Positions 7,998 through 20,148 of a stretch of 24,000 bases of DNA are shown piece after piece. Numbering within the stretch: the first letter of the stretch is position 1; each line of letters begins with the position of its first letter. The DNA is taken from assembly GCA_050749785.1 (NCBI GenBank), contig JBOGSA010000002.1, positions 37,447 through 61,446 of the forward strand, read 5' to 3'. The position numbers and the translations under genes are program-made. A model generated the notes under the pieces. The model was not told the DNA's origin. It was given only the letters and a program-made list of their open reading frames with translations, and searched no databases. The DNA is from Candidatus Micrarchaeales archaeon (GTDB lineage Archaea > Micrarchaeota > Micrarchaeia > Micrarchaeales > CABMGC01).

Positions 7998-8492
7998 ATG
8001 GCAAAGGATGAAGTAAGCAAGGTAACGCACGACGCGCTCCAAGAAGGCGGAGTTCTAGCCAAGCTTTATTTTGACATGCACAGCGAGAAAGAGGAGGATC
8101 TGCAGCCGCTGATGACAGATCTGATAAGCAATAGGCTGCTCAAGACGCCGGGCGTAATATACTGCGTGGGTGAGATTGCCGAGCCAATAAAAATAGAGGA
8201 GATTTATTCCACCAACGCCGTGGCAACAATACTCTTCAAGGACATCGGTGCTCTGATAAACGTCACATTCAACTACGCACCAGCCGGCATCGAGATAATA
8301 AAACCAGAAAAGGAGGTTGCGATAAAGGTTAGCGAGCTCCAATCCATACTTCTCGACCTATCGAAAGTTGCGATGGAGTATTCACAGTTCATACTCAGCC
8401 GGGTCCTTTCAAAGGAGGACTACGAAAAAGTGCAGGGCGACCTCAAGAACAGGGAACTCGTGGGAAAGAGGCTGCTCGAGAAGAAGGAGTAG
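7998..8492 (+). CDS. Hypothetical 164-aa protein (gene X; left flank of the cassette array)
   Basis: ATG at 7998, 4 nt after the hisS stop. Its last 86 codons are duplicated at 11067-11327 with a purifying-selection pattern, which argues for a real, conserved gene. Family not recognised. Confidence 0.7.
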   Translation: MAKDEVSKVTHDALQEGGVLAKLYFDMHSEKEEDLQPLMTDLISNRLLKTPGVIYCVGEIAEPIKIEEIYSTNAVATILFKDIGALINVTFNYAPAGIEIIKPEKEVAIKVSELQSILLDLSKVAMEYSQFILSRVLSKEDYEKVQGDLKNRELVGKRLLEKKE

Positions 8493-8524
8493 TAGTTTGG
8501 TTATAAACGAATCTTGTAATCAGC

Positions 8525-8532
8525 TTTATAAA
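8525..8532 (+). promoter_or_regulatory. TATA-like box (TTTATAAA) inside a 36-nt block conserved at the left edge of both cassettes
   Basis: Block 8497-8532 aligns with 11419-11454 at about 27/36 identity and ends in an identical TTTATAAA. It lies upstream of small gene E in both copies. Confidence 0.5.
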
Positions 8533-8588
8533 TAAGGGCAAACAACATTAACTTGAAGCAAGAACCATATTTGCAACTGCGTGAAAAA

Positions 8589-8774
8589 ATGGGCGGAACA
8601 ATAAATAAGAACGGCAAACTGTATAAAACAGAAAGAAGGATAACCTTCGTTATGTCACCTAAGAATGGTTGCCCACGTTTCAGCATAACGGGAAACGTAA
8701 CAAAATTCAGAGACGACTTTGGCGGCAGAGTTAAATCAAAAGGAAAGCTTATAAGACACTTTACCTCTGTTTAA
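8589..8774 (+). CDS. Cassette 1 small protein E1 (61 aa), function unknown
   Basis: ATG 8589 within track ORF 8553-8774. An ungapped alignment with hand-translated E2 shares CPR..(I/V).G..(V)KF.DD(F/Y). Position and the 3-prime/3-prime overlap with R are conserved in both cassettes. Confidence 0.45.
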   Translation: MGGTINKNGKLYKTERRITFVMSPKNGCPRFSITGNVTKFRDDFGGRVKSKGKLIRHFTSV

Positions 8775-9789
8775 CTACTGATTTAATAAATTCCCTTTGT
8801 TTCTCATACTCCTCCAAATGAGAAGGCCACTTGCCAACTATAATATCGGTAAGTATTGCCCTATCTATTTTTGGCTTTTCTGTTTTCCACATAGTTTGTA
8901 CTAGTTCGGCGCCTCTTTTTGACATCTCCTCCCCATTCTTGAAAGTGCACATAGAAAACACATCATAAGTGCCATTAATGTTAACATCGAGCACATAGTC
9001 ACTTGTTGCCCCATTAAAACTTTCTGTAGTAAATTCTTTTGCCAAATTAAGGGCCAGTTCTTGGTGGTTTTTTACAGGTGTTAATGTTGCCCCATATGCC
9101 AAAATAATCTTCTTATCTGTCTCTTGAGTTAGGGCAGCAAATTTCCTAATAATTTTCTTTTGTTCAAGTTTTTCAAGTATGTAAATGGCCCTCATCTGCG
9201 TTGTCTTCGCCTTATTCACCAGCTCCTTTAACTTTATTCTTGAGTTTTCATTTACCGCTTTTAGCACCGCTTTTTCAGTTTTGTTGAGTATTGGACTTAG
9301 TTCAATCAGCTCATTTTTCAACGGTAAAAACCCAACAATGTATTCATTGATCGTAGAAGTCTTGAAGATCGGCACATAATCGCTCAAATCCATCCTGAGC
9401 TTAAACTGCCATGTTTGGAAGTCTTTTGAGGTTAAACCTACCACATAAAGAAGAAGGTCAAAGTCTCCCGTTCCCAAATAAGCGTCCTGTACGAAGACAT
9501 CCCTCCTGAATTTATTGTATAGAAATTCTCTCGTAGGCGTATTCTCAAATTTTACCGTTATGAGTCTGCCCTCAGAAAAACCTAAGGCAACCTCGTCAAG
9601 TTCAACTGTATAATATATATGGTATCGTGCCTCCAGTTCCTTTAAAACTTTGGAGATAGTAAAATGGGAAACCCCTATTTCACGAGATAATTCCCTAATA
9701 GTAATTCGGGAATTTTTGGCTATTCTAACTAAAATCTGATAAGGCACTTCTTCCCGTATGAATTTCATAGCTTTTCGCGTGTGCACCAT
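8761..9789 (-). CDS. Cassette 1 regulator R1: two tandem wHTH + RAM-like modules (Lrp/AsnC-like)
   Basis: HTH-like segments: ILVRIAKNSRITIRELSREIGVSHFTISKVLKELE and VLKAVNENSRIKLKELVNKAKTTQMRAIYILEKLEQKKIIRKF. Each is followed by a RAM-like segment, e.g. LITVKFEN...VQDAYLGTGDFDLLLYVVGLTSKDF. ATG at 9789; TTG alternative at 9801. Confidence 0.7.
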   Translation of the reverse strand: MVHTRKAMKFIREEVPYQILVRIAKNSRITIRELSREIGVSHFTISKVLKELEARYHIYYTVELDEVALGFSEGRLITVKFENTPTREFLYNKFRRDVFVQDAYLGTGDFDLLLYVVGLTSKDFQTWQFKLRMDLSDYVPIFKTSTINEYIVGFLPLKNELIELSPILNKTEKAVLKAVNENSRIKLKELVNKAKTTQMRAIYILEKLEQKKIIRKFAALTQETDKKIILAYGATLTPVKNHQELALNLAKEFTTESFNGATSDYVLDVNINGTYDVFSMCTFKNGEEMSKRGAELVQTMWKTEKPKIDRAILTDIIVGKWPSHLEEYEKQREFIKSVVKQR

Positions 9790-9912
9790 TTTATCTTCCA
9801 AAATAATTATTTATTTATTATATTAATGATAAATACTATAATTTATTTGATTTATTTGCCAATAAATATATATACCCAAAACTTCATAATTATTTCCAGA
9901 GGGAATTGGATT
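9790..9912. promoter_or_regulatory. AT-rich divergent control region of cassette 1 (between R1 and the A1-D1 operon)
   Basis: About 85% A+T by eye, with multiple TATA-like boxes on both strands. Contains the tandem direct repeat ATTTATTTG x2 at 9841-9858. Confidence 0.55.
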
Positions 9913-10182
9913 ATGGGGATATACACTGCCAATGCTTTCCCAAAGTTTGGCAAGACTGATTTTCTTCACTCCCTAAAGAATACCCATCCCAAGGTAAGTT
10001 CCCATATCCTTCCCTCCATCTACAACTCCTTCATCAAAAGATTCGTAAGACCGAAATTTGTCAGAAAATCGTACCTATGTTGGCAGTGTGAGGAGAAATA
10101 CTCCGATCCCCTGAAATATACCATGCATATGCGGGACTGCTGTTGCATAAAGCAATGTGCCACTATAGAGGTAATTAAATGA
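9913..10182 (+). CDS. Cassette 1 protein A1: small classical (beta-beta-alpha type) C2HC zinc-finger protein
   Basis: The segment YLCWQCEEKYSDPLKYTMHMRDC fits Y-x-C-x2-C-x3-Y-x5-Y-x2-H-x3-C. About 65% aa identity to A2. ATG at 9913 within track ORF 9781-10182. Confidence 0.8.
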   Translation: MGIYTANAFPKFGKTDFLHSLKNTHPKVSSHILPSIYNSFIKRFVRPKFVRKSYLCWQCEEKYSDPLKYTMHMRDCCCIKQCATIEVIK

Positions 10183-10346
10183 AGCCGCATGAACGTGCCA
10201 TGGAGATGCTCTTGCAAATAAGCGAGATGAACCTCATGCTGCCTGAGCTCTATAGCCACCTTCCAAGGAACGACTGGATAAGGATTAAGCAGCTTCTCGA
10301 GGAGACACAGCAGATACTCGAAAAGCATAGGAGGGTGCCGATATGA
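10179..10346 (+). CDS. Cassette 1 protein B1: 55-aa helical protein
   Basis: Hand-translated: MKPHERAMEMLLQISEMNLMLPELYSHLPRNDWIRIKQLLEETQQILEKHRRVPI. ATGA overlap with the A1 stop. 44/55 identical to B2. Below the track cutoff. Confidence 0.75.
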   Translation: MKPHERAMEMLLQISEMNLMLPELYSHLPRNDWIRIKQLLEETQQILEKHRRVPI

Positions 10347-10504
10347 ACTACTACGCCTACATCAGGAGAAGGTGCGCAGACCTTATCAGCCTGAGGTTCA
10401 AGTTGCACAAGCTATTCAATTTCCTGCATGGCCCGGATTTTGAAAGGCTGCAGGAATTGCTTGATGAAGCAGAACAGATACTTAAGAAATACGAGAATAT
10501 GTGA
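10343..10504 (+). CDS. Cassette 1 protein C1: 53-aa helical protein, paralogous to B
   Basis: Hand-translated: MNYYAYIRRRCADLISLRFKLHKLFNFLHGPDFERLQELLDEAEQILKKYENM. ATGA overlap with the B1 stop. The first 51 aa are identical to C2 despite about 13 synonymous nucleotide differences. Confidence 0.85.
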   Translation: MNYYAYIRRRCADLISLRFKLHKLFNFLHGPDFERLQELLDEAEQILKKYENM

Positions 10505-10517
10505 ATTGTGTGTTTTC

Positions 10518-10802
10518 ATGTCTTCAAAAAGGAAGTGTAGGATAGCATGCGAAAGCCAAAAGCTGCGCAGTTTCATAATGCTAAAGCCCTCACTGCCTGC
10601 CAACTCGCACGCAGTAGCAAAGGAGATCGCGATGTGCAGGGGCGTGAGGGAGGTGGCACTTACGACAGGCGAATTTGGATTTATTGTAGGAGTAGAGTCA
10701 GAGCCATTGGTTGAAGAGATCAAAAGGAAGATTCACACAATTGCACATTCCAAAAAGATGAGTGTGCTTGTCAAGCATTTTTCGTACAAAAATACACTAT
10801 AA
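10518..10802 (+). CDS. Cassette 1 protein D1: stand-alone RAM (Lrp/AsnC ligand-binding-like) domain protein
   Basis: FIMLKPSLPANSHAVAKEIAMCRGVREVALTTGEFGFIVGVES resembles the RAM beta-alpha-beta-beta core (V.EV..VTGEYDLIV.VE). About 65-70% identical to D2. ATG 10518; TTG 10506 is possible. Confidence 0.75.
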   Translation: MSSKRKCRIACESQKLRSFIMLKPSLPANSHAVAKEIAMCRGVREVALTTGEFGFIVGVESEPLVEEIKRKIHTIAHSKKMSVLVKHFSYKNTL

Positions 10803-10804
10803 AG

Positions 10805-11062
10805 TCATTTCGCCAGCCCGCGCAGGAAAAACCTCTTTATCACGACGCTCGGCCTGTCCATGTCGCCGTATTTTCCAAGGAACGATTCGAGGCCCATCAG
10901 TTTTATCACCCTGGCAATCCTCTCAAGGCTCTTTTTGCTCTGCGTTGCGTAAAGGTTGTAGAAGAAAGAATGCAGCCTGACTTCTTTCTCAAACTCCTTC
11001 CTCCATTTGCGCTCATATGTGCTGAGCTGCGTTCCTTTGTTTATGTGGCTTGCGATTGCATC
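10805..11062 (-). pseudogene. 3-prime fragment (last 85 codons + stop) of a GGR-family gene
   Basis: Encodes DAIASHINKG...FFLRGLAK, 85/85 aa identical to the end of 13807-14913, with about 9 nucleotide differences that are all synonymous. It lacks the remaining ~283 codons. The upstream extension of track ORF 10805-11107 is antisense of the X fragment. Confidence 0.88.
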
Positions 11063-11066
11063 AGTG

Positions 11067-11327
11067 CTCTTCAAGGACATCGGCGCGCTGATAAACGTGG
11101 CGTTCAACTACGCCCCGGCGGGAATCGAGATAATGAAGCCGGACAAGGAAGTGTCGATAAAGACGAGCGAGCTCCAGTCCATAATACTCGACCTATCGAA
11201 AGTTGCGATGGAGTATTCACAGTTCATACTCAGCAGAGTGCTATCCAAGGAGGATTTCGAAAAGGCCAAGACCGACCTGCAAAACAGAGAGATGATAGGC
11301 AAGAAGCTCCTTGAAAAGAAGGACTAA
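11067..11327 (+). pseudogene. 3-prime fragment (last 86 codons + stop) of a gene-X homologue
   Basis: LFKDIGALINVAF...LLEKKD is 71/86 identical to the X C-terminus, and the replacements are mostly conservative. It lacks the first 78 codons. The upstream part of track ORF 11007-11327 is antisense of the GGR fragment. Confidence 0.88.
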
Positions 11328-11446
11328 AAAATCAATAATCGCATTTTATTCTCCACCCATCTGGAATATCTATTTTTATTTCCATTTTCCTCCATTTTTA
11401 GACCCCTTGAAATATCAATTGATAATAAACGAAGTTACATATCAGA

Positions 11447-11454
11447 TTTATAAA
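11447..11454 (+). promoter_or_regulatory. TATA-like box (TTTATAAA) of the conserved left-edge block, cassette 2
   Basis: Counterpart of 8525-8532. Lies about 36 nt upstream of the E2 ATG. Confidence 0.5.
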
Positions 11455-11489
11455 GGGGGATTGCAATGATTATTTGTATAGTGAGTTAA

Positions 11490-11660
11490 ATGAGAATTAT
11501 AAAGAGCAACAATAAGACAGTAATAGTAGCATCGGGGGGGGACAATGGCTCACAGTGCCCACGAGGAATCGTATCTGGCAGTCATGTTAAGTTTGCTGAT
11601 GATTACCACAATAAACTTATAGCTAAGAAATCTCTCGTCTTTAAGCTATTTCTTGTATGA
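11490..11660 (+). CDS. Cassette 2 small protein E2 (56 aa), function unknown
   Basis: Hand-translated: MRIIKSNNKTVIVASGGDNGSQCPRGIVSGSHVKFADDYHNKLIAKKSLVFKLFLV. Weak but positional homology to E1. Overlaps the R2 3-prime end by 15 nt. Contains a G8 run. Confidence 0.4.
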   Translation: MRIIKSNNKTVIVASGGDNGSQCPRGIVSGSHVKFADDYHNKLIAKKSLVFKLFLV

Positions 11661-12767
11661 TTTTGGTATTAATTTTGCCGATTCTAGGAATTTATATTGT
11701 CTAGAGTATACGGCATCAAAATCTCTGACACCTGTATTACCAAGCAATATCTGTGTCATGAAGAAGGGTTTTATTGATGATCCATGTAACTCTGTCCTTA
11801 ATTTATTAAGGAACTTTTCAGCAGAATTACCATCAACAAAATTCATAAAAATTATTATGCCTTGTGGGGTAGAAATATCGCACATGAAAGTATACTCTAT
11901 GTGTTTATCATAATCCCTAACCATATCTAGCCACCAGACTGATCTGCTATTTAGAAATTGTTTGTCGTTAAGTATCGTGACTTGGACTATGAGCGTAACA
12001 ACATTGTTTGGCTTATTTTCATAGTAAGTAATTCTGCGAAGCATTCCTGTATCTATCAACCTTTCATACGCATAGATAATATGCGGTAATCCATGTTTTG
12101 ATTCTTTTGCAATGGCACTAAACTCCTTTCTCCCATCTTCATTCAATGCTAGCAGAATGTGTTTATACGTATCTAGTATTTGGAATTTCTCTACGAGATT
12201 ATTTTGCATAGGGAAGAAACCGAAGGTCGTGCGTATGTTCAATAGCTCAGAACGTATTTCATAATGTTTATCAAGGCTGCTGATGTCCTCTCTAAAAGTA
12301 TTTAAAAATCTGTTTATCTCGTCGTAGCTTCTTGCAATTCCATATATAACTACATCATATTCGCCATGCAATCTTGCTGCAAATTGCGGTATATAATGTT
12401 TTTCAAGAGCTTTTGAGAACTCAATGTCTGTAGGGATACCATCTATGAATTTGATGAATATTAGGTACTCTTCGAAGCCTAACTCCGGCAACTTTTCAAT
12501 AACGTTTTCTAAGATTCCCTTCTTATTGTAGGTTCTCGCATATTTTACAAATTCCCATCGCCACAATTCCTCTATCCCTATTTCGGGAGTAAAACGTATG
12601 TCCTGTTCCTTTACCGTCTCTCTAAATAATCTATTCAAGGTGGTTTGGGGGACATTAAGTTTTGAAGCAAGATCCCTTATACTTCTTCTTCCATCAACAC
12701 TCAAAAGTTTCAGCATCCTTCTCTTAATTGCTGCCTTTTCCTCATCACTAAATATTCTGTCAGGCAT
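11646..12767 (-). CDS. Cassette 2 regulator R2: two tandem wHTH + RAM-like modules (Lrp/AsnC-like)
   Basis: HTH-like segments: LKLLSVDGRRSIRDLASKLNVPQTTLNRLFRE and ILLALNEDGRKEFSAIAKESKHGLPHIIYAYERLIDTGMLRRI. RAM-like segment: LIFIKFIDG...AARLHGEYDVVIYGIARSYDEINRF. Same architecture as R1 but only about 20% identity by eye. ATG at 12767; TTG alternative at 12785. Confidence 0.7.
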   Translation of the reverse strand: MPDRIFSDEEKAAIKRRMLKLLSVDGRRSIRDLASKLNVPQTTLNRLFRETVKEQDIRFTPEIGIEELWRWEFVKYARTYNKKGILENVIEKLPELGFEEYLIFIKFIDGIPTDIEFSKALEKHYIPQFAARLHGEYDVVIYGIARSYDEINRFLNTFREDISSLDKHYEIRSELLNIRTTFGFFPMQNNLVEKFQILDTYKHILLALNEDGRKEFSAIAKESKHGLPHIIYAYERLIDTGMLRRITYYENKPNNVVTLIVQVTILNDKQFLNSRSVWWLDMVRDYDKHIEYTFMCDISTPQGIIIFMNFVDGNSAEKFLNKLRTELHGSSIKPFFMTQILLGNTGVRDFDAVYSRQYKFLESAKLIPKSYKK

Positions 12768-12915
12768 ATTTCTCTTTTGAATCAAACATTTTTAAGTCTT
12801 TGGTTTATATTAAGAATTATTTACCAATTTATTCAATATTTAGCCTATTAATAGCACATATTATTCTAACTACTTATAAAAGTATCTAACTGCATATTAT
12901 ATTTGGGATTTGGGA
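12768..12915. promoter_or_regulatory. AT-rich divergent control region of cassette 2
   Basis: AT-rich with TATA-like boxes, e.g. CTTATAAAAG about 38 nt upstream of the A2 ATG. Contains the tandem repeat ATTTGGG x2 at 12901-12914. The sequence is not alignable with the cassette 1 control region. Confidence 0.55.
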
Positions 12916-13179
12916 ATGGGAACTTACATCGTCGAAACTTACAAGTTAGGCACTACTGATTTTCTTCACTCCCTGAAGAACAACCCCCAGAAGGTAAGTT
13001 CCCAAACCTCTCCCTCATTCTATAAGTCCTTTATCAAAAGATTCGCAAGAACAAAAGTCATAAAGAAAGCCTACTTGTGCTGGGAATGCGAGGCGAAGTA
13101 TTCTGATCCTTTGAAATATGCTATACACTTGGAAGACTGCTGCACTAAACAGTGTGCCACAATCGAGGTAATTAAATGA
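12916..13179 (+). CDS. Cassette 2 protein A2: classical C2HC zinc-finger protein
   Basis: YLCWECEAKYSDPLKYAIHLEDC has the same spacing as A1. ATG 12916; the track start at 12910 is TTG. Confidence 0.8.
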   Translation: MGTYIVETYKLGTTDFLHSLKNNPQKVSSQTSPSFYKSFIKRFARTKVIKKAYLCWECEAKYSDPLKYAIHLEDCCTKQCATIEVIK

Positions 13180-13343
13180 AGCCGCATGAACGTGCCATGG
13201 AGATGCTCTTGCAAATAAGCGAGATGAACCTCATGCTGCCTGAAATATACAATCACCTTACCATGAATGATTGGTACAGACTAAAGCAGCTCCTCGAGGA
13301 GGCAGAACAGATACTGGAAAAACACAAGAAGGTCTCGATATGA
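13176..13343 (+). CDS. Cassette 2 protein B2: 55-aa helical protein
   Basis: Hand-translated: MKPHERAMEMLLQISEMNLMLPEIYNHLTMNDWYRLKQLLEEAEQILEKHKKVSI. ATGA overlaps at both ends, as in cassette 1. Confidence 0.75.
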   Translation: MKPHERAMEMLLQISEMNLMLPEIYNHLTMNDWYRLKQLLEEAEQILEKHKKVSI

Positions 13344-13504
13344 ACTATTATGCCTACATAAGGAGAAGGTGTGCAGATCTAATCAGCCTAAGGTTTAAGT
13401 TGCACAAGTTGTTTAACTTCCTGCATGGCCCGGATTTTGAAAGGTTGCAGGAATTGCTTGATGAAGCAGAACAGATACTTAAGAAATACGAGAGAAGCAT
13501 GTAA
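13340..13504 (+). CDS. Cassette 2 protein C2: 54-aa helical protein
   Basis: MNYYAYIRRRCADLISLRFKLHKLFNFLHGPDFERLQELLDEAEQILKKYERSM, the C-terminal part of track ORF 13271-13504. Confidence 0.85.
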   Translation: MNYYAYIRRRCADLISLRFKLHKLFNFLHGPDFERLQELLDEAEQILKKYERSM

Positions 13505-13515
13505 TGGTGTGTTTC

Positions 13516-13818
13516 ATGTCTTTGAAGAACAAGTGTAAGATAGCGTGCGAAAACCTGCGAAGTCAGCATGGCTTCATAATTCTGAAGCCCTCTTCGTCTA
13601 TTAATTCACACATTGTTGCAAAGGAGATCGCGATGTGCGAGGGTGTAAAGGAAGTGGCGTTGACAACTGGCGAATTTGGATTTGTAGTGAGGGTGGAGTC
13701 AAGAATAGGGATTGAAGGCATCAAAAGGAAAATTTCTGCAATTACTCATTCTAAAAAGGCAAGTATCCTCGTAAAGCATTTTTCATACCGAAATACCATC
13801 CATAATTCATTTAGCTAA
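13516..13818 (+). CDS. Cassette 2 protein D2: stand-alone RAM-domain protein
   Basis: FIILKPSSSINSHIVAKEIAMCEGVKEVALTTGEFGFVVRVES. ATG at 13516 is homologous to the D1 start; an upstream ATG at 13504 is possible. The 3-prime end overlaps the GGR stop region by 12 nt. Confidence 0.75.
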   Translation: MSLKNKCKIACENLRSQHGFIILKPSSSINSHIVAKEIAMCEGVKEVALTTGEFGFVVRVESRIGIEGIKRKISAITHSKKASILVKHFSYRNTIHNSFS

Positions 13819-14913
13819 GCCGCGCAGGAAAAACCTCTTTATCACGACGCTCGGCCTGTCCATGTCGCCGTATTTTCCAAGGAATGATTCGAGGCCCATC
13901 AGTTTTATCACCCTGGCAATCCTCTCAAGGCTCTTTTTGCTCTGCGTTGCGTAAAGGTTGTAGAAGAAAGAATGCAGCCTGACCTCCTTTTCAAATTCCT
14001 TCCTCCATTTGCGCTCATATGTGCTGAGCTGCGTTCCTTTGTTTATGTGGCTTGCGATTGCATCTGCGGCATATCGAGCTCCGTTTCCGCCGAATATTAT
14101 TCCGCCTCCGGTGGTTGGCTTCACCTGACCTGCAGCATCGCCGACAAGAAGCACCTCTTCTTTGTCCTTCACGAAATGTTCGCGCATCCCAACCGGAATG
14201 AAACTTGCGCCTTCTGTTATGAATTTTCCGCTCTTTACTACCTCTGCAATCGCAGGGATTTTCTTGAATTTCTCAAATGATGACTTGCTGTTGCCAAACT
14301 TCGAGTCAATCCCTATTCCTATTTCCGCGATATCTTTTGAGTTTGGGCAGATCCATCCGAAGAATCCAGGGGTGAGGTCGTTGTCGAAAAATAGCTCCAC
14401 CATGCTGTTCTCCTCTAACTTATAATCATATTCCGCCCTGAAAGTGAGAATCTGCCTTTGTATTGCAGGAAACTTGAAATGCCTTGCCACAGACGACACA
14501 GCTCCATCGGCGCCTACCACTATCTTCTCCTGCGACAACTTATCGAATAGGGTAGCATCAACCTTTGTACCAATATGCATCTTCACTCCCTTCTTCTCGC
14601 TCTCTTCTAAAAGCAGCTTGTTGAGTTCAAATCGCTCAAGTACATAGGCCACAGCCTTCTGTGATTTTATCTCTAGTATCTCCTTGCCTATGTGTAATTT
14701 TGCTCCGTGTAAGGTGTTGGTCATCACCTTCCTGTAATCTATGCCCAAGGTTTCAAGTCCGCTGATCGAAAGGATTCCGGATGCTCGCACAGGAAATCCA
14801 GGCGTCTTGTTCTGGTCGTACACATCAGTTTCTATTCCAAAATCACGCAGCCTGTTTGCAGCAATTAACCCTGCAGTTCCTGCCCCAATAATCGCAACAC
14901 TATTCTTCATCAA
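13807..14913 (-). CDS. Geranylgeranyl reductase-family FAD-dependent oxidoreductase (right flank of the cassette array)
   Basis: N-terminal dinucleotide fold VAIIGAGTAGLIAANRL...DVYDQ, followed by LLVGDAAGQVKPTTGGGI. Length and motif order are typical of archaeal GGR-family proteins. Confidence 0.85.
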   Translation of the reverse strand: MMKNSVAIIGAGTAGLIAANRLRDFGIETDVYDQNKTPGFPVRASGILSISGLETLGIDYRKVMTNTLHGAKLHIGKEILEIKSQKAVAYVLERFELNKLLLEESEKKGVKMHIGTKVDATLFDKLSQEKIVVGADGAVSSVARHFKFPAIQRQILTFRAEYDYKLEENSMVELFFDNDLTPGFFGWICPNSKDIAEIGIGIDSKFGNSKSSFEKFKKIPAIAEVVKSGKFITEGASFIPVGMREHFVKDKEEVLLVGDAAGQVKPTTGGGIIFGGNGARYAADAIASHINKGTQLSTYERKWRKEFEKEVRLHSFFYNLYATQSKKSLERIARVIKLMGLESFLGKYGDMDRPSVVIKRFFLRGLAK

Positions 14914-14971
14914 AAGCCCAAGTTGGTGTTTAAATAAGTTATCGTTCTTAAGTTATAAAATACGTGTCTTG

Positions 14972-17836
14972 ATGACCTTCTTAGTTCCGGCATTTATATC
15001 ATTACTATCTATAATAGTCCCTGGATTTTTCCTGGCACTAGCCCTGCTCAAAAAAACAAAGCTCAACATGTTTGAGATTGGTGCGATTGGATTCATATTC
15101 GGACTGATTTTCCCGCCAACAATGATCTGGCTCGAAGCCTACCTCATACCAATTTCACATGCATTCGCATTTTCCACAAACCTCTACAACATAAACGTTG
15201 TGCTTCTCACGATAATCGGCATAGTCCTCTGCTTCATGCAAGGAATTTTCTCCACCGACCACATAAAGCCATTCATCGGCATGGCAAAGTCTGCAAAGAG
15301 CCAGGCGACGGCAGAGAGTGTTGTTCTTAGCCCCAGCAAGAAGGGACACTCTTACATCTGGTACATATTGATGGGGCTTATGCTTGTCACATTCGCATCA
15401 AGGCTGCTAAGCCTTGGGATTGCACCAAATTTCTTCGAGTTCGACCCATATTTCGACATGCTCAGCACCCAATCCATACTCGTTCACGGCTATCAGGTTC
15501 TTTACGACCATTCTGCTTGGCCTACGCTAACCGCAGGCAGCCCGCACAGAATAGAACCAATAGTTCCTTATCTTGAGGCTTACTGGTACACAATCACAAA
15601 CCAGCTCCAGACGCACTACACGGCATTTAGCACCTCGCTCATGAGCGATGTTAGCAGCTTCTATCCACCAATAGTTGCTGCGCTGCTCGTCTTTGTCGTT
15701 TTCATGTTCCTATATCATGAGTATGGCGAGTTCCCGGCGATAATCGGCGGCACGCTTGCGACCGCAATGCCGGCACTCATCACAACATTCATCGCAGGAG
15801 AACAGCTCGTCGAACCATGGGGAATCTTCACGCTTTTCTTCTTCTATGCGGCGTATCTGCTCGCGGTCAACAACTTACATGAAAAGAAGTTCGCAATACT
15901 CGCAGGCATCGCCTTCGTATCCACCTTCCTAGGCGCTCACTACTACACGGTGGACGCGGGAGTTCTTGCGATATACATACTGCTGCAAGGAATAGTATTT
16001 GTCCTAAAGAAAGAGCACACAAAGGATTTCTACATCCTCAATATAATCGTAATCGCGATAATCGCAGTCTTCTACGTGCTCTTCGCGCCATATGGAAGCG
16101 TTCTTTCCAACAAGATACCGGCGTTGCTTGGCGTACCGATTATAATCGGCTTCCCGCTCTTTGCCATGATATTCGTCCTGATATTCGAATACATTCCAAA
16201 GCTGCTTGCACAGAAAAAGATACTCTTCAAGCAACTAAACTTCCTAGAATACGCAGGCTTTTTGCTGCTCCTTGCAATCGTTGCGATAGTGCTGATAATG
16301 TTCACATCGCTTGGCGAACCGGTGCAGAAATATATAACACTTAGCACCCACTTCACAACTCCCTCAATACCGTTGTTTGCAACAGTCCAGGAGTATTCGC
16401 CGACAGGATTTAACTTCAACTTCGGGTCTGCAGGCTTTGGAATAATTGGCGCAACCATTTTGGGAGTCAACTTGATAGTATGGCTAGTGCTGATTTTGTT
16501 CACAGCTCTTATGCTGCTTGCAATCTACCACAGGAATTCTAAGTTCAGCATCCTCTCTCTTGCCGCTGTATGGCCGCTTGCGATTGCAGGAATGGTAGAG
16601 GTGAAATATCTGCCGCACTTCGGAGTTGGTTACATACTTGCAATTGGCGCAATAATCGGGGAACTTTTGATACTGGCAAACAACAACTTCAAATTCAAGG
16701 ACATGGCAAATGTGATACCAACACTCAACCTCAAGCTCAGATCGGTGCAAGCGATAGCCGTTATCGCCATAATCGTTGTCATACTCGAATCTGGAGTGTT
16801 CCTAAACATTATAAGCGCTGTGGCTAATCCAAGCTGTGCCTCCCTTTCTAGTTCCAACAATCAGATAGGCTACACTCTTTATTGTGAGGTCGTATCGCAG
16901 CAGTGGCTGAGCGCACTCTCATGGATGAAGGCAAATGTAGGGCCGTACGCCCCAAGGGTGCTTGCATGGTGGGACTATGGAGACTGGATAAACTGGTTTG
17001 GCAACAGCAATGCGGTGCTCAGAGGAGACAACGCTGTAGCAACTTCAGACTACGCCACCGCAGCGCAGTATGTGCTAGTGAATTCTGACGGCGTTAATTC
17101 CTCGACCCTTTCATCTTACATGAACTCAATACAGGCAAAGTATGTGCTCTTTGATGATCAGCTGATGCAGAAGTGGGGCGCGCTGGACTATCTTGCATGT
17201 GTAAATGCAGGACAAACGAGCCTAGCATACGCAGTACAGCAGGGGCAGGCTAACGGCCAGCCCTACCAACTCGGCACATCTCAGTGTGAACTAGCCCACG
17301 ATCCTGTGTATGCGCTCGTTCCTGCAACGACCAACAACATAAACAATTACTGCCAGTTCAGCAATTCATCTGTCCAGGCGCTCAAGGTGATAATGCTAGC
17401 TGGCAACAACTTCCTCAATGTGACATACTGCGTTCCTGCAAGCCTATACAACAGCGTCAGCCCAGTGCATCTCTACACCACCAACGGAACGATGACGAAC
17501 GCAATGATCATACCTTCGCAGACATTCTTCTATGGCACAATTCCACTAAGCGGCCAGACATTTGCGGACTTCCTTGTTGTGTACCTGCCTAACGGGCCTA
17601 ACGACACGATAACAGATGCGCCTACGCAGTTCTACAATTCGAGCTACTACAAAGGATTCTTCTTTGGCAAGGTGAAGGGATTCAGTCTTGTCTACCCAGA
17701 GAACTTCACAGGAGTGAACTACATCAACAGTACGAACACTGTAATGATACTGCAAGTCGACAACTACACCGGCGGCATACCAACGGCGACTCCAAAGGCG
17801 AGCTACGTTACAAACAACTACACAATGCCTGGTTGA
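14972..17836 (+). CDS. aglB: Archaeal oligosaccharyltransferase AglB (STT3 family), 954 aa
   Basis: A multi-TM N-terminal half followed by the WWDYGDWINW (WWDYG) catalytic motif at 16967-16981. ATG 14972 was chosen because the track ORF start at 14741 runs antisense through the GGR gene. A TTTAAATA box lies about 40 nt upstream. Confidence 0.9.
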   Translation: MTFLVPAFISLLSIIVPGFFLALALLKKTKLNMFEIGAIGFIFGLIFPPTMIWLEAYLIPISHAFAFSTNLYNINVVLLTIIGIVLCFMQGIFSTDHIKPFIGMAKSAKSQATAESVVLSPSKKGHSYIWYILMGLMLVTFASRLLSLGIAPNFFEFDPYFDMLSTQSILVHGYQVLYDHSAWPTLTAGSPHRIEPIVPYLEAYWYTITNQLQTHYTAFSTSLMSDVSSFYPPIVAALLVFVVFMFLYHEYGEFPAIIGGTLATAMPALITTFIAGEQLVEPWGIFTLFFFYAAYLLAVNNLHEKKFAILAGIAFVSTFLGAHYYTVDAGVLAIYILLQGIVFVLKKEHTKDFYILNIIVIAIIAVFYVLFAPYGSVLSNKIPALLGVPIIIGFPLFAMIFVLIFEYIPKLLAQKKILFKQLNFLEYAGFLLLLAIVAIVLIMFTSLGEPVQKYITLSTHFTTPSIPLFATVQEYSPTGFNFNFGSAGFGIIGATILGVNLIVWLVLILFTALMLLAIYHRNSKFSILSLAAVWPLAIAGMVEVKYLPHFGVGYILAIGAIIGELLILANNNFKFKDMANVIPTLNLKLRSVQAIAVIAIIVVILESGVFLNIISAVANPSCASLSSSNNQIGYTLYCEVVSQQWLSALSWMKANVGPYAPRVLAWWDYGDWINWFGNSNAVLRGDNAVATSDYATAAQYVLVNSDGVNSSTLSSYMNSIQAKYVLFDDQLMQKWGALDYLACVNAGQTSLAYAVQQGQANGQPYQLGTSQCELAHDPVYALVPATTNNINNYCQFSNSSVQALKVIMLAGNNFLNVTYCVPASLYNSVSPVHLYTTNGTMTNAMIIPSQTFFYGTIPLSGQTFADFLVVYLPNGPNDTITDAPTQFYNSSYYKGFFFGKVKGFSLVYPENFTGVNYINSTNTVMILQVDNYTGGIPTATPKASYVTNNYTMPG

Positions 17837-17840
17837 TTTA

Positions 17841-18971
17841 TTGAAGCTCGTGATAACCCATCCGTATCTGAATCTCAAGGGTGGCGCAGAGAGGGTCATA
17901 CTCGAGATAGCAAAGCACTACGACGCGAAGATTTACTGCATTGATTATGATAAGAAGGAGACCTTTTCTGATTTCAATGATGTAGACATAGAAATTATAA
18001 AGAAGAAGATTCCTTTCTCATCAATCCTTCCATACAGGGCAGGGCAGGGGCTCAAGGCAGGCTATGTCTTTTACAACACGAAGATAAAGGAGGATTACGA
18101 CGTTGTAAATCCACACACCTCGCCGAGCGAGTGGATAAGGCACAAGAATCCAAGGGCGCTATGGTACTGCCACACCCCGATACGGGAGGTATACGACCTC
18201 TACTCGTTTAGGATGCAAAACAGGTCAACAAAAGAGAAGCTGCTCTACTTCACATTCGCAAATTCCTACAAGATAATGTCGAAGGGAATAATAGACAGGA
18301 TAGAGGGCATAGCAACAAACAGCCAGAACACAAAATCTAGAATAAGCAAATATTTCGGAAGGGATGCAACCATAATAAATCCGGCGATTAACCCCAAGGA
18401 GTTCAAGAATTCCGGGGACGAAAAATATTTCCTCTACATATCTAGGTTCTACCTAAACAAGAGGCAGGAATACGTAATAGACGCATTCAAGAGGTTCATA
18501 AGAAAGACAAAACTGACCAACTACAAGTTAATTCTCGCAGGCTCGCTCTCAAATGACAAGGAGCACATCGCATACTTTGAGATGCTAAAGAGAATATCGC
18601 CTAAGAATGTAATATTCAAGCTCCACACAAGCGACGCAGAGGCAAGAAAGCTCTACTCAAATTGCACCGCAGTGCTATTCGCCGCAATAAACGAGGATTT
18701 CGGCATCGCACCGCTTGAAGCGATGGCAAGCGAGAAAGTGCTGATCGCAGTAAATGAAGGGGGCCCGCGAGAAACAGTTGAAGATGGCAAGACAGGTTTC
18801 CTTGTCAACTCTCCAGAGGATATGTCTGAGAAGATGAAATGGATTGTGGAGCACAAGGAGCTTGCAAGCAAGATAGGAAAAGCAGCCAGAAAGAGGGTAG
18901 CTGAGAAATATTCCTGGGACGCGTTCTTTAGGAAGTTTGATAAGATGGCGCAGAAAGTTTCCAAGATGTGA
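17841..18971 (+). CDS. Glycosyltransferase, GT4/GT-B family
   Basis: N-terminal KLVITHPYLNLKGGAERV and the C-terminal EDFGIAPLEAMASEKVLIAVNEGGPRETVEDGKTGFLV motif (E-x7-E type). Apparent TTG start 4 nt after the aglB stop. Confidence 0.85.
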   Translation: MKLVITHPYLNLKGGAERVILEIAKHYDAKIYCIDYDKKETFSDFNDVDIEIIKKKIPFSSILPYRAGQGLKAGYVFYNTKIKEDYDVVNPHTSPSEWIRHKNPRALWYCHTPIREVYDLYSFRMQNRSTKEKLLYFTFANSYKIMSKGIIDRIEGIATNSQNTKSRISKYFGRDATIINPAINPKEFKNSGDEKYFLYISRFYLNKRQEYVIDAFKRFIRKTKLTNYKLILAGSLSNDKEHIAYFEMLKRISPKNVIFKLHTSDAEARKLYSNCTAVLFAAINEDFGIAPLEAMASEKVLIAVNEGGPRETVEDGKTGFLVNSPEDMSEKMKWIVEHKELASKIGKAARKRVAEKYSWDAFFRKFDKMAQKVSKM

Positions 18972-18975
18972 AAAC

Positions 18976-19296
18976 TTACTGGTTGATTACATACCTGCCG
19001 ATTATCTTTGTCGCGTAATCTAGGACCTTTACAATGTTTGCCTCAGTGTTTGAACCTGTGCAGATCAGTTTGCCGTTCTTGAAAAGAATGATTACTGCTG
19101 AAGGCTCCTTTATCCTAAAAATTGCGCCAGGGAACTGCTCGGGCTCGTAGTCCACTTCCTTGACATTCTTTGAAAGCGCGTAAAGATCAATTGTAGCATG
19201 AAGGTCTGCGCTCACCACAATGTTTTGTATGTTTATTTTTGGCTTTAGGTTCAGAACCCTTGGGGTTCCTGGCTTTGCGCTTTCCTGCTTAGGCAT
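18976..19296 (-). CDS. Single-repeat (half-size) TATA-box-binding-protein-like protein, 106 aa
   Basis: INIQNIVVSADLHATIDLYALSKNVKEVDYEPEQFPGAIFRIKEPSAVIILFKNGKLICTGSNTEANI matches one TBP repeat (IQNIVAS.DL...YEPEQFPGLIYR..EP....LIF.SGK.V.TGAK). Only one repeat fits between its own TATA box and the GT4 stop. Confidence 0.8.
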   Translation of the reverse strand: MPKQESAKPGTPRVLNLKPKINIQNIVVSADLHATIDLYALSKNVKEVDYEPEQFPGAIFRIKEPSAVIILFKNGKLICTGSNTEANIVKVLDYATKIIGRYVINQ

Positions 19297-19325: not shown

Positions 19326-19334
19326 ATTTAAATA
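19326..19334 (-). promoter_or_regulatory. TATA-like box (TATTTAAAT on the minus strand) for the half-TBP gene
   Basis: Centred about 34 nt upstream of the ATG at 19296, consistent with a leaderless or short-leader archaeal mRNA. Confidence 0.5.
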
Positions 19335-19386
19335 CCCTCTAAAGTTCGCCTATTGATTTATACAAAAACTAAGTAACGTTTAAATA

Positions 19387-20148
19387 ATGCAAGCCGAGAC
19401 TCTACTAAAACAGGTAGCGAACATGTCATTAGTTCCACATCCCCAGAGCCAAAGCTCACGAGCATATGCCGAATTCAAAGGGCTTAGCGGCGAGGGTCAC
19501 AATTATCTTGCATTTAGGCATGCATTGAGAAATCTTGACGAACCAGAGCAGAGGATATCATTTGCAAGGACCGTAATTTGCCTTTTAAGGGATAAAAACT
19601 ACGAGAGTGCATGGGAATTCGCAAGAGTGTCTGCCGAATTCTCAACAGAACCGCTTAACAGGCTAATCATCACCCAGAGGGTGGGGCAGCTAATGGAGAA
19701 GGACAAGGCCAAGGCGCTCTCCTTTGCTAAGATCTGGGTGAAGAACAAAAAGATAAAGCTCGCAATCGCAAGCGCACTGCACACCGATCTTCTCGCCAAT
19801 AAAAAATATCAACCAGCAGCAATCCTTTGGGATGAATACAACCTCGGGCCCAAAAGGCACAATCTTGCCGCTTTTGAAATGGTGAGGCTGCAGATAGAAT
19901 CCGTCAGAAGCTACGCGCTTAATGAGCCAAAGGAGAAGAATGACAAGCTAAAAACGCTAGAAGAGATAAAGGACAAACTTGAAGACGCCATAGAGTTTGG
20001 CAGGCTATACCCGCGAGCAGTCAAAAGGAAGGATGTGGTAAAAGCTGTCAAACTGCATGCGAAGGCCCAGCAGATGATATTCTCAATAGAGCACGGCCTG
20101 GCAAACCACATACCCCACACATTCGGGCCCTCTAAGCTGCCAAATTAG
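19387..20148 (+). CDS. Hypothetical 253-aa alpha-helical protein
   Basis: Long ORF with a helical-repeat-like composition. A TATA-like ATTTATAC box lies about 30 nt upstream. No family recognised. Confidence 0.6.
   Translation: MQAETLLKQVANMSLVPHPQSQSSRAYAEFKGLSGEGHNYLAFRHALRNLDEPEQRISFARTVICLLRDKNYESAWEFARVSAEFSTEPLNRLIITQRVGQLMEKDKAKALSFAKIWVKNKKIKLAIASALHTDLLANKKYQPAAILWDEYNLGPKRHNLAAFEMVRLQIESVRSYALNEPKEKNDKLKTLEEIKDKLEDAIEFGRLYPRAVKRKDVVKAVKLHAKAQQMIFSIEHGLANHIPHTFGPSKLPN

Follow-up and report, generated by a model that had tools for sequence, protein, structure and literature searches.

A conserved single-lobe TATA-binding protein in Micrarchaeales, a probable half of a split TBP

The canonical TATA-binding protein (TBP) of archaea is a single polypeptide of ∼180 aa that carries two lobes in tandem, and according to an old idea the protein started out as two single lobes joined in a dimer. 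To our knowledge, experiments have so far had no access to this pre-fusion, single-lobe ancestor. The 24-kb stretch of Candidatus Micrarchaeales DNA analyzed here (hereafter the window) contains a gene that a reading of the sequence alone took for a half-size TBP with one stand-alone repeat, which might act as a homodimer, as one half of a split TBP with its partner encoded elsewhere, or as a TBP-domain paralogue with another role. The locus therefore raises the question of whether this gene encodes a genuine TBP lobe and, if so, which other lobe completes the saddle.

One TBP lobe and its surroundings

Starting from an ATG in the window sequence, the open reading frame (see the table) matches Pfam family PF00352 once, over residues 20-100 and profile positions 1-83 of 85 (E = 8e-24), in keeping with the exactly one domain that had been expected of such a scan. 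In a phmmer search of PDB sequences the protein matched archaeal TBPs at about E = 3e-39 (1mp9), its one lobe aligning with both lobes of each PDB TBP. AlphaFold2 gave a pLDDT of 50 with a shallow alignment of 30 sequences and of 88.7 with 92 diverse sequences; the half-TBP model has strands at residues 26-31, 48-50, 58-62, 67-71, and 76-82 and helices at residues 38-44 and 85-102, that is, a predicted topology of strand, helix, four strands, and long helix. Foldseek fits this model to a single lobe of 44 solved TBP chains (rmsd 0.9-2.0 Å over ∼84 residues), and the TM-scores of ∼0.76 by query and ∼0.45 by target are those of half a TBP. By family and by fold the protein is a TBP lobe, and with its one Pfam match it lacks the two tandem lobes per polypeptide of a canonical TBP. 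The gene encodes exactly one complete TBP lobe, as the sequence-only reading had claimed. Weak Pfam matches to DUF3378 (the N-domain of RNase HIII, E = 6e-4) and RCC1_2 reflect a shared TBP-like fold or chance.

Coordinates of the half-TBP gene, its parts, and its neighbors in the window
Feature	Position	Strand	Description	Basis
B-type half-TBP CDS	18976..19296	(-)	106 aa, one TBP lobe; NCBI ACREBF_00560 (P0001)	ORF list, Pfam, PDB matches, AlphaFold2 and Foldseek
TBP lobe	18997..19239	(-)	residues 20-100; order S1-H1-S2-S3-S4-S5-H2	Pfam envelope and AlphaFold2 secondary structure
Basic N-terminal tail MPKQESAKPGTPRVLNLKP	19240..19296	(-)	length and sequence vary across the family	low pLDDT for residues 1-20
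Stirrup motif YEPEQFPG	19126..19149	(-)	residues 50-57; E51 and E53 predicted to contact TFB, F55 predicted first DNA-inserting Phe	
TATA-like box TATTTAAAT	19326..19334 (plus-strand)	(-), read on the gene's strand	centre ∼34 nt upstream of the ATG	consensus only
Convergent GT4 glycosyltransferase	17841..18971	(+)	conserved downstream neighbor	Pfam Glycos_transf_1 and Glyco_transf_4
Divergent 253-aa ORF	19387..20148	(+)	context only; shares a 90-nt intergenic region with the half-TBP	

Set beside the canonical two-lobe TBPs of Sulfolobus acidocaldarius (1MP9), Pyrococcus woesei (1PCZ/1AIS), and M. jannaschii (2Z8U), the half-TBP has the same PF00352 lobe fold (37-55% identity, rmsd 0.9-2 Å), the same DNA-inserting phenylalanine pair, central Asn/Val, and stirrup YEPEQFPG, and the same expected partners, the TATA box and TFB. 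It differs in having one lobe per polypeptide, with the second lobe a separate gene on another contig, in a saddle that would need non-covalent assembly, and in terminal tails that are basic rather than acidic. In two-lobe TBPs a linker between the lobes leads into the C-lobe, and the LNLKPxI end of the half-TBP tail is similar to it; phmmer aligns the tail to the linker and C-lobe LTGKPKIQIQNIV of 1mp9.

The 3' end of the gene is fixed by the conserved convergent GT4 gene downstream, which ends at 18971, 4 nt from the TBP stop codon at 18976-18978, confirming that there is no room for a second repeat at this end. Nor was a frameshifted repeat found, again as first proposed: when TBP lobes were compared by tblastn with the six reading frames of the 24-kb window, no second TBP-like segment emerged, the next best hits (E = 0.057-0.24) being short chance matches, and none appeared in any frame within ±10 kb of 12 orthologous loci. 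On the other side, the half-TBP has what looks like its own promoter, putative by consensus. The TATA-like box TATTTAAAT lies at the distance from the ATG that had been noted and, as read from the sequence, is preceded by a purine-rich, BRE-like TTAGAGGG. A comparable TATA box is present 25-45 nt upstream in 8 orthologous loci, and the closest relatives (L001 and L002) have TTAGARRG before the box in common. The divergent 253-aa ORF matched no Pfam family and, among the loci compared, is restricted to L083 and L084, two near-identical contigs. It was considered as a TBP partner and rejected because its conservation ends at these near-identical contigs.

A conserved family in Micrarchaeales

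The window protein is 100% identical to ACREBF_00560 from a Candidatus Micrarchaeales MAG. Single-lobe proteins of 90-144 aa that are 64-94% identical to it account for 101 of its best 120 database matches, whereas the two-lobe TBPs among them (19 of the best 120) are only 48-55% identical. The family to which it belongs, here called B-type, comprises upward of 100 protein clusters from the DPANN order Micrarchaeales, with matches drawn from NCBI, JGI, ENA, and Logan assemblies and one member on a 1.2-Mb contig, so that a survey of relatives bears out the single-lobe architecture. B-type proteins are monophyletic in 100% of bootstraps of neighbor-joining (NJ) trees built on 81 columns. Conservation is deep: across 30 diverse members, 30 residues are invariant, including N25, V27, Y50-I59, I69-K73, and G75-C79. 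Two subgroups can be told apart, 1a (…KEVDYEPEQ…GKLICTGS) and 1b (…KAVDYEPEQ…GKMICTGT). Both lie at the same TBP-GT4 position, making them positional orthologues rather than paralogues, and for that reason they were rejected as the two partners of one TBP.

When the B gene was compared with 11 orthologues from GTDB species genomes and the one on the 1.2-Mb contig, pS was 0.75-0.86 (saturated) and pN 0.05-0.17, with a dN/dS of ∼0.07 wherever dS could be estimated, and the gene is under strong purifying selection. The convergent arrangement of TBP and GT4 is kept in 12 loci from different species (L001-L003, L005-L011, L081, and L083), and the same convergent GT4 gene is present at every B locus whose contig extends far enough; upstream of the B gene lies either the thermosome side or a geranylgeranyl-reductase-like gene.

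These comparisons bear on the possibility that the half-TBP is an artefact, whether a pseudogene left by truncation, a two-lobe TBP broken by a frameshift, or a wrongly binned fragment. The sequence comes from a MAG, and some B homologues carry mistaken taxonomic labels (Saccharimonadales, Methanothrix, and Marsarchaeota), showing that binning errors occur. Against an artefact, the same architecture recurs in the independent clusters of all four sources, including the long contig; the stop abuts a conserved convergent gene; the frame search around 12 loci was negative; and the family shows the signature of strong purifying selection. The domain is present and conserved in relatives, and no intact two-lobe TBP adjoins the gene. 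We regard this explanation as refuted in practice.

The function-defining residues of TBP are likewise conserved. The roles of the stirrup glutamates and phenylalanines are known from PMC7221094 and from TBP crystal structures, and B has the predicted DNA-contact residues, an inserting phenylalanine pair and a central S1 Asn/Val, at positions that we take to correspond to yeast F190/F207 and N159/V161, respectively. The stirrup YEPEQFPG is invariant both in the 30 B-type sequences and in the 92-sequence alignment, as is L71, and N25, V27, E51, E53, F55, P56, F72, and I78 are invariant in B and also present in the second single-lobe protein described below, here called A-type. Within the stirrup, E51-P52-E53 is invariant in B, and A has the same glutamate signature. 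The contact partners of the two stirrup glutamates in TFB/TFIIB are a conserved Arg and Thr, and the glutamate pair is a signature of the C-lobe (PMC7221094); B has predicted equivalents of both (C.L3.2 and C.L3.4). Judged by alignment, both halves keep these residues.

A second single-lobe gene beside L21e

The complete genome of Mia14 holds 2 arCOG01764 (TBP) proteins, compared with one in most other DPANN (Golyshina et al., PMC5498576, Suppl. Data 4), a count that led us to search for a second TBP gene. An L21e search located the L21e protein P0400 (ACREBF_03310) in the same MAG as ACREBF_00560, and its gene is divergently adjoined by that of a 112-aa PF00352 protein, which an exact-sequence match identifies as ACREBF_03315. 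The second half that the sequence-only reading had proposed to look for elsewhere in the genome is thus present in the same MAG. Both genes are also contained in assembly GCA_975254265.1, B on contig CDHSRO010000004.1 and A together with L21e on CDHSRO010000006.1. A second MAG repeats the pairing, with ACP5RT_00410 as B and ACP5RT_01910 (94 aa), which adjoins the L21e gene ACP5RT_01905, as A. Both halves therefore occur in the same genome in two MAGs, where contamination is possible, to which can be added the published Mia14 count, in which A and B types are not distinguished. If the two Mia14 proteins are A and B, that count leaves no room for a third TBP gene. In the supplement text of the Micrarchaeum harzensis paper, as far as it was available to us, there are no TBP, PF00352, or arCOG01764 entries. 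The taxonomic labels Micrarchaeales, Micrarchaeaceae, and Micrarchaeia are common to A- and B-type proteins.

Five further L21e loci of the clade have a single-lobe TBP of 109-127 aa, giving A-type proteins a length range of 94-127 aa. Over 88 residues, A and B share 51% identity, which falls in the 41-58% range found between the N- and C-lobes of ordinary archaeal TBPs.

The position of A beside L21e is that of the normal TBP gene. GTDB genomes were scanned by sequence patterns, one of which was YEPEQFPG, so that motif frequencies from the scan are biased; among the matches listed, Micrarchaeota and Iainarchaeota have at least the two-lobe TBPs L017, L018, L020-L022, L024, and L026-L029 and, besides B, at least the single-lobe genes L012-L016, L019, L023, L025, L030, and L051. 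In other Micrarchaeota and in Iainarchaeota, L21e is divergently paired with a two-lobe TBP (L017, L018, L020, L022, L024, L026, L028, L029, and L050). In every Micrarchaeales-type locus examined, the same place is held by a single lobe, A (L013-L016, L019, and L085-L092), and the single-lobe genes L025 and L051 also lie beside L21e. Neighbor clustering and tblastn show that the L21e-adjacent TBP genes sit in a conserved L21e-RpoF/Rpb4-DUF655-KsgA cluster. No B-type gene was found at an L21e locus among the loci examined. A is accordingly the positional orthologue of the normal two-lobe TBP and occupies the ancestral TBP locus.

Of the three roles first proposed, one half of a split TBP with its partner elsewhere is the best supported, given ACREBF_03315 beside L21e and the same pairing in the second MAG. 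We consider it probable that B is one subunit of a TBP that Micrarchaeales encode in two unlinked single-lobe genes. The two subunits would join non-covalently through their central S1 strands and H2 helices, the surfaces that unite both lobes of a normal TBP, and their association would produce a ten-stranded saddle. Insertion of two phenylalanines from each lobe would let this saddle bend the TATA box, and it would recruit TFB through the stirrup glutamates; either stirrup could bind TFB. As elsewhere in archaea, transcription would then take its direction from the contact of TFB with the BRE. According to a passage in PMC7289017 (citing Bell et al. 1999), archaeal polarity is set by TFB and BRE and not by the asymmetry of TBP. 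Binding of DNA and recruitment of TFB by the half-TBPs are predicted from their residues, and the genomes with A and B may contain no two-lobe TBP.

Assembly and origin of the two lobes

The two pieces of the proposed split TBP are themselves homologues, which makes homodimers a serious alternative. B could form a symmetric saddle by itself, either as the main TBP or as an alternative TBP beside an A2 homodimer, and two or three TBP species could then serve different promoter classes, as the multiple TBP paralogues of haloarchaea are thought to do. The lobe-lobe interface of TBP is pseudo-twofold, making a homotypic interface geometrically natural. B has TFB-contact glutamates of the C-lobe kind, so that each side of a B2 dimer could bind TFB, and polarity can be set by BRE and TFB. 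Lobes that are nearly alike do occur together in one polypeptide. P0270 and P0271 are two-lobe TBPs in which both lobes are A-type and 83-87% identical to each other, which shows that a homotypic A-A saddle is viable in nature, so that A2, and by analogy B2, could be the working forms; another near-symmetric two-lobe TBP, P0033, has 85% lobe identity. In general, lobe identity in Micrarchaeota two-lobe TBPs is unusually high, at 59-75% versus 41-58% elsewhere.

Against homodimers, A and B are both retained in the genomes examined, each with its own type-specific conserved sequence, and the simplest reading of this is that they are non-redundant parts of one complex. We also know B alone from no genome, and B resembles a C-lobe whereas A does not. 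A homodimer of B as the sole TBP lost ground with the discovery of the partner gene A, and we now think homodimers of B unlikely. An A-B heterodimer is probably what forms, rather than A2 and B2 homodimers or besides them.

Lobe identity was assessed with HMMs built from the N- and C-lobes of 45 non-DPANN TBPs. B scores 7-19 bits higher on the C-lobe than on the N-lobe HMM, whereas A scores nearly equally on both (-3 to +4.5 bits). Over seven lobe-diagnostic columns, the A consensus has the N-lobe residue at 4 and the C-lobe residue at 1, and the B consensus the C-lobe residue at 3 and the N-lobe residue at 1. The first strand reads QNIV in B, typical of C-lobes, and ENIV in A, commoner in N-lobes. 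A also keeps the position of the two-lobe gene and hence its 5' end and promoter side. On these comparisons B resembles a C-lobe, and A is ambiguous, leaning weakly toward an N-lobe; that A is the former N-lobe and B the former C-lobe is thus only weakly indicated.

In NJ trees, the DPANN-clade lobes (N, C, A, and B) group apart from the canonical N- and C-lobes with 92% bootstrap support, and the lobes of P0270 and P0271 nest in the A clade (82% for A with these lobes). A sister relationship of A and B receives 3%, and the position of B inside the DPANN clade is not settled by the tree. The data would fit either a two-lobe gene that underwent fission or a single-lobe gene that was duplicated. 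The nearest full-length relatives of the half-TBPs are the two-lobe TBPs of other Micrarchaeota and Iainarchaeota (L017, L022, L024, L028, and P0270/P0271), which share the DPANN lobe clade. Those beside L21e are in the exact place of the A half in Micrarchaeales; they differ in being fused, with lobes that are unusually alike (59-87%). P0270 and P0271 look like an apparent re-fusion of A-type lobes. We tentatively put forward a wider proposal, for which the balance is slightly unfavorable at present: that Micrarchaeales are without any two-lobe TBP and recognize their promoters with non-covalent single-lobe dimers, A-B and possibly A2 and B2 as well. Under this proposal, lobes would have parted and joined again more than once in Micrarchaeota and Iainarchaeota, a history to which the occurrence of single-lobe L21e genes in more than one lineage, the tandem A-A proteins, and the close likeness of the lobes in two-lobe forms would point, and nature could do without a covalent link between lobes.

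Stand-alone TBP domains are not in themselves new. From Euryarchaea, Brindefalk et al. (2013, PMC3597702) reported "monopartite" proteins with one TBP domain, whose functions are unknown or non-essential. They comprise haloarchaeal TbpA, a non-essential protein that closely resembles the full TBPs of its own species, and a diverged Thermococcales family of 91-97 aa (e.g., P. furiosus NP_578195). Both exist beside a normal TBP (PMC3597702). Like B, TbpA consists of one free-standing TBP domain and groups with genuine TBP lobes. It coexists, however, with several intact TBPs, whereas B coexists with another half and no full TBP was seen with it. B is also an old, order-wide family and not a recent truncation of the TbpA type, its nearest two-lobe TBPs being 48-55% identical and its synonymous divergence saturated. 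The Thermococcales proteins share with B a single TBP-fold domain of ∼95 aa without an adjacent second domain, but by their description they are far from TBP, form a separate sequence cluster, and have a normal TBP alongside, whereas B is near-canonical.

Such precedents suggest a further reading, in which B is a TBP-lobe paralogue outside basal transcription, whether as a regulator or decoy, capping A or competing for TFB or the TATA box, or as a protein with some other nucleic-acid-binding role. B does lie off the ancestral TBP locus, its branch is longer than that of A, and the basic tails are variable. However, its 45-55% identity to canonical TBP lobes contrasts with the far-diverged Thermococcales proteins, and it is conserved much like the neighboring thermosome (64-86% versus 75-83% identity). 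If B were dispensable, only lobe A would be left at the TBP locus, and dimerization of single lobes would still be required. Since its predicted DNA- and TFB-contact residues are invariant in the 30 B-type sequences and the 92-sequence alignment, we rank a paralogue with another role as the least likely of the three readings and quite improbable.

A two-gene TBP has a parallel of another kind in reduced DPANN genomes, classically that of Nanoarchaeum equitans, in which split protein-coding genes occur. As there, a normally single-chain protein would be made from two unlinked genes in a small-genome archaeon; what sets TBP apart is the homology of its pieces. We know of no case of TBP among the listed DPANN split genes. 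In the literature we found no single, half, or split TBP for DPANN or Micrarchaeota, PMC3597702 being the only relevant work. That study reports no DPANN cases of single-domain TBPs, and a large TBP survey does not mention single-lobe TBPs (PMC7221094). Three features distinguish the micrarchaeal proteins from these precedents: the near-canonical sequence of the halves, the presence of one half at the TBP locus, and the lack of a full-length TBP seen alongside.

Natural half-proteins make the idea of a dimeric origin of TBP testable. If a whole order does rely on two half-TBPs, covalent linkage of the lobes is not essential, and their single-lobe dimers would be a living version of the presumed pre-fusion ancestor. 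Homo- versus heterodimer assembly, the symmetry of the TATA box, and polarity set by TFB and BRE could then be addressed with natural proteins. The half-TBP is relevant to specialists in archaeal transcription and protein evolution and can be tested directly. DPANN comparative papers score TBP only as present, and such scores in genome surveys would then miss a structural change in the core transcription machinery. NCBI names both halves "hypothetical protein", an annotation that needs correcting.

Single-lobe TBPs and their gene neighbourhoods

Single-lobe TBP genes of 89-155 aa occur more widely, and among the matches listed they include genes from genomes labelled Micrarchaeota, Iainarchaeota and Nanobdellati (see table). 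The TBP lobe of L023, a locus in another genome, carries an N-terminal extension of ~70 aa built of AKKKAVKKKPAAKKK repeats, which is rich in lysine and resembles the tail of histone H1.

The L21e-RpoF/Rpb4-DUF655-KsgA cluster is conserved except that PIN-domain or Fic-domain genes have been inserted between L21e and DUF655 in different genomes. These insertions are toxin-antitoxin-like cargo adjoining the A-type TBP, the single-lobe form divergent from L21e.

Coordinates of the features discussed (L loci lie outside the window and are numbered in their own coordinates)
Feature	Location	Coordinates	Remark
Single-lobe TBP gene	L015	3825-4088	adjoins L21e
Single-lobe TBP gene	L025	3206-3466	adjoins L21e
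Single-lobe TBP gene	L051	10001-10264	adjoins L21e
Single-lobe TBP gene	L023	10001-10318; 9860-10318 with N-terminal extension	not beside L21e
Single-lobe TBP gene	L030	10001-10255	not beside L21e
Inserted PIN-domain/Fic-domain gene	L085	10548-11190	
Inserted PIN-domain/Fic-domain genes	L088	4453-5080 and 6156-7097	
AglB-like membrane protein	window	14741-17836	longest ORF, 1031 aa
Segmental duplication, two copies	window	8223-11000 and 11058-14000	~3 kb, tandem

Two-lobe TBPs and putative multi-lobe or fused TBPs

The two lobes of Micrarchaeota two-lobe TBPs are unusually similar, with a lobe-lobe identity of 59-87% (P0270, P0271 and P0033; loci L017, L022 and L024) compared with 41-58% in TBPs of Bathyarchaeia and Thermoplasmata. 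Two of these proteins, P0270 and P0271, consist of the A-type lobe in tandem copies, an arrangement that suggests either re-fusion or concerted evolution.

Three, four or five TBP-lobe matches were found in each of four further database proteins, namely P0122 (272 aa, an archaeal-type three-lobe N-N-C protein), P0121 (376 aa, a TBP core of eukaryote type repeated twice), P0125 (702 aa) and P0247 (329 aa). These could have arisen through misassembly, or they could be genuine TBPs with more than two lobes. In P0575 (389 aa; from an ENA contig of 2376 bp), an SRP54/FtsY-type GTPase domain is followed by an in-frame fused lobe of the B-type, the family of the half-TBP gene in the window. This fusion is probably an artefact of gene calling or assembly, because SRP54 lies two genes away in locus L081.

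Start sites and a tandem duplication in the window

Within region 19379-19425, a TTTAAATA box abuts the listed ATG (19387) of the 253-aa ORF divergent from the half-TBP gene. Since a second in-frame ATG is present at 19423, ~37 nt downstream of this box, the true start of the ORF may be Met13, and translation from it would probably be leaderless. The AglB-like membrane protein, whose 1031-aa ORF had no Pfam match at E <= 1e-5, is 954 aa long in the public gene call, and the longest ORF runs ~170 nt into the convergent GGR-like gene; the real start is therefore probably further downstream.

The two copies of the segmental duplication share 73-95% identity, and each contains a gene for a winged-helix (MarR/AsnC-type HTH) protein (346/379 aa) together with several ORFs of 50-95 aa, one of them MJ0538-like.
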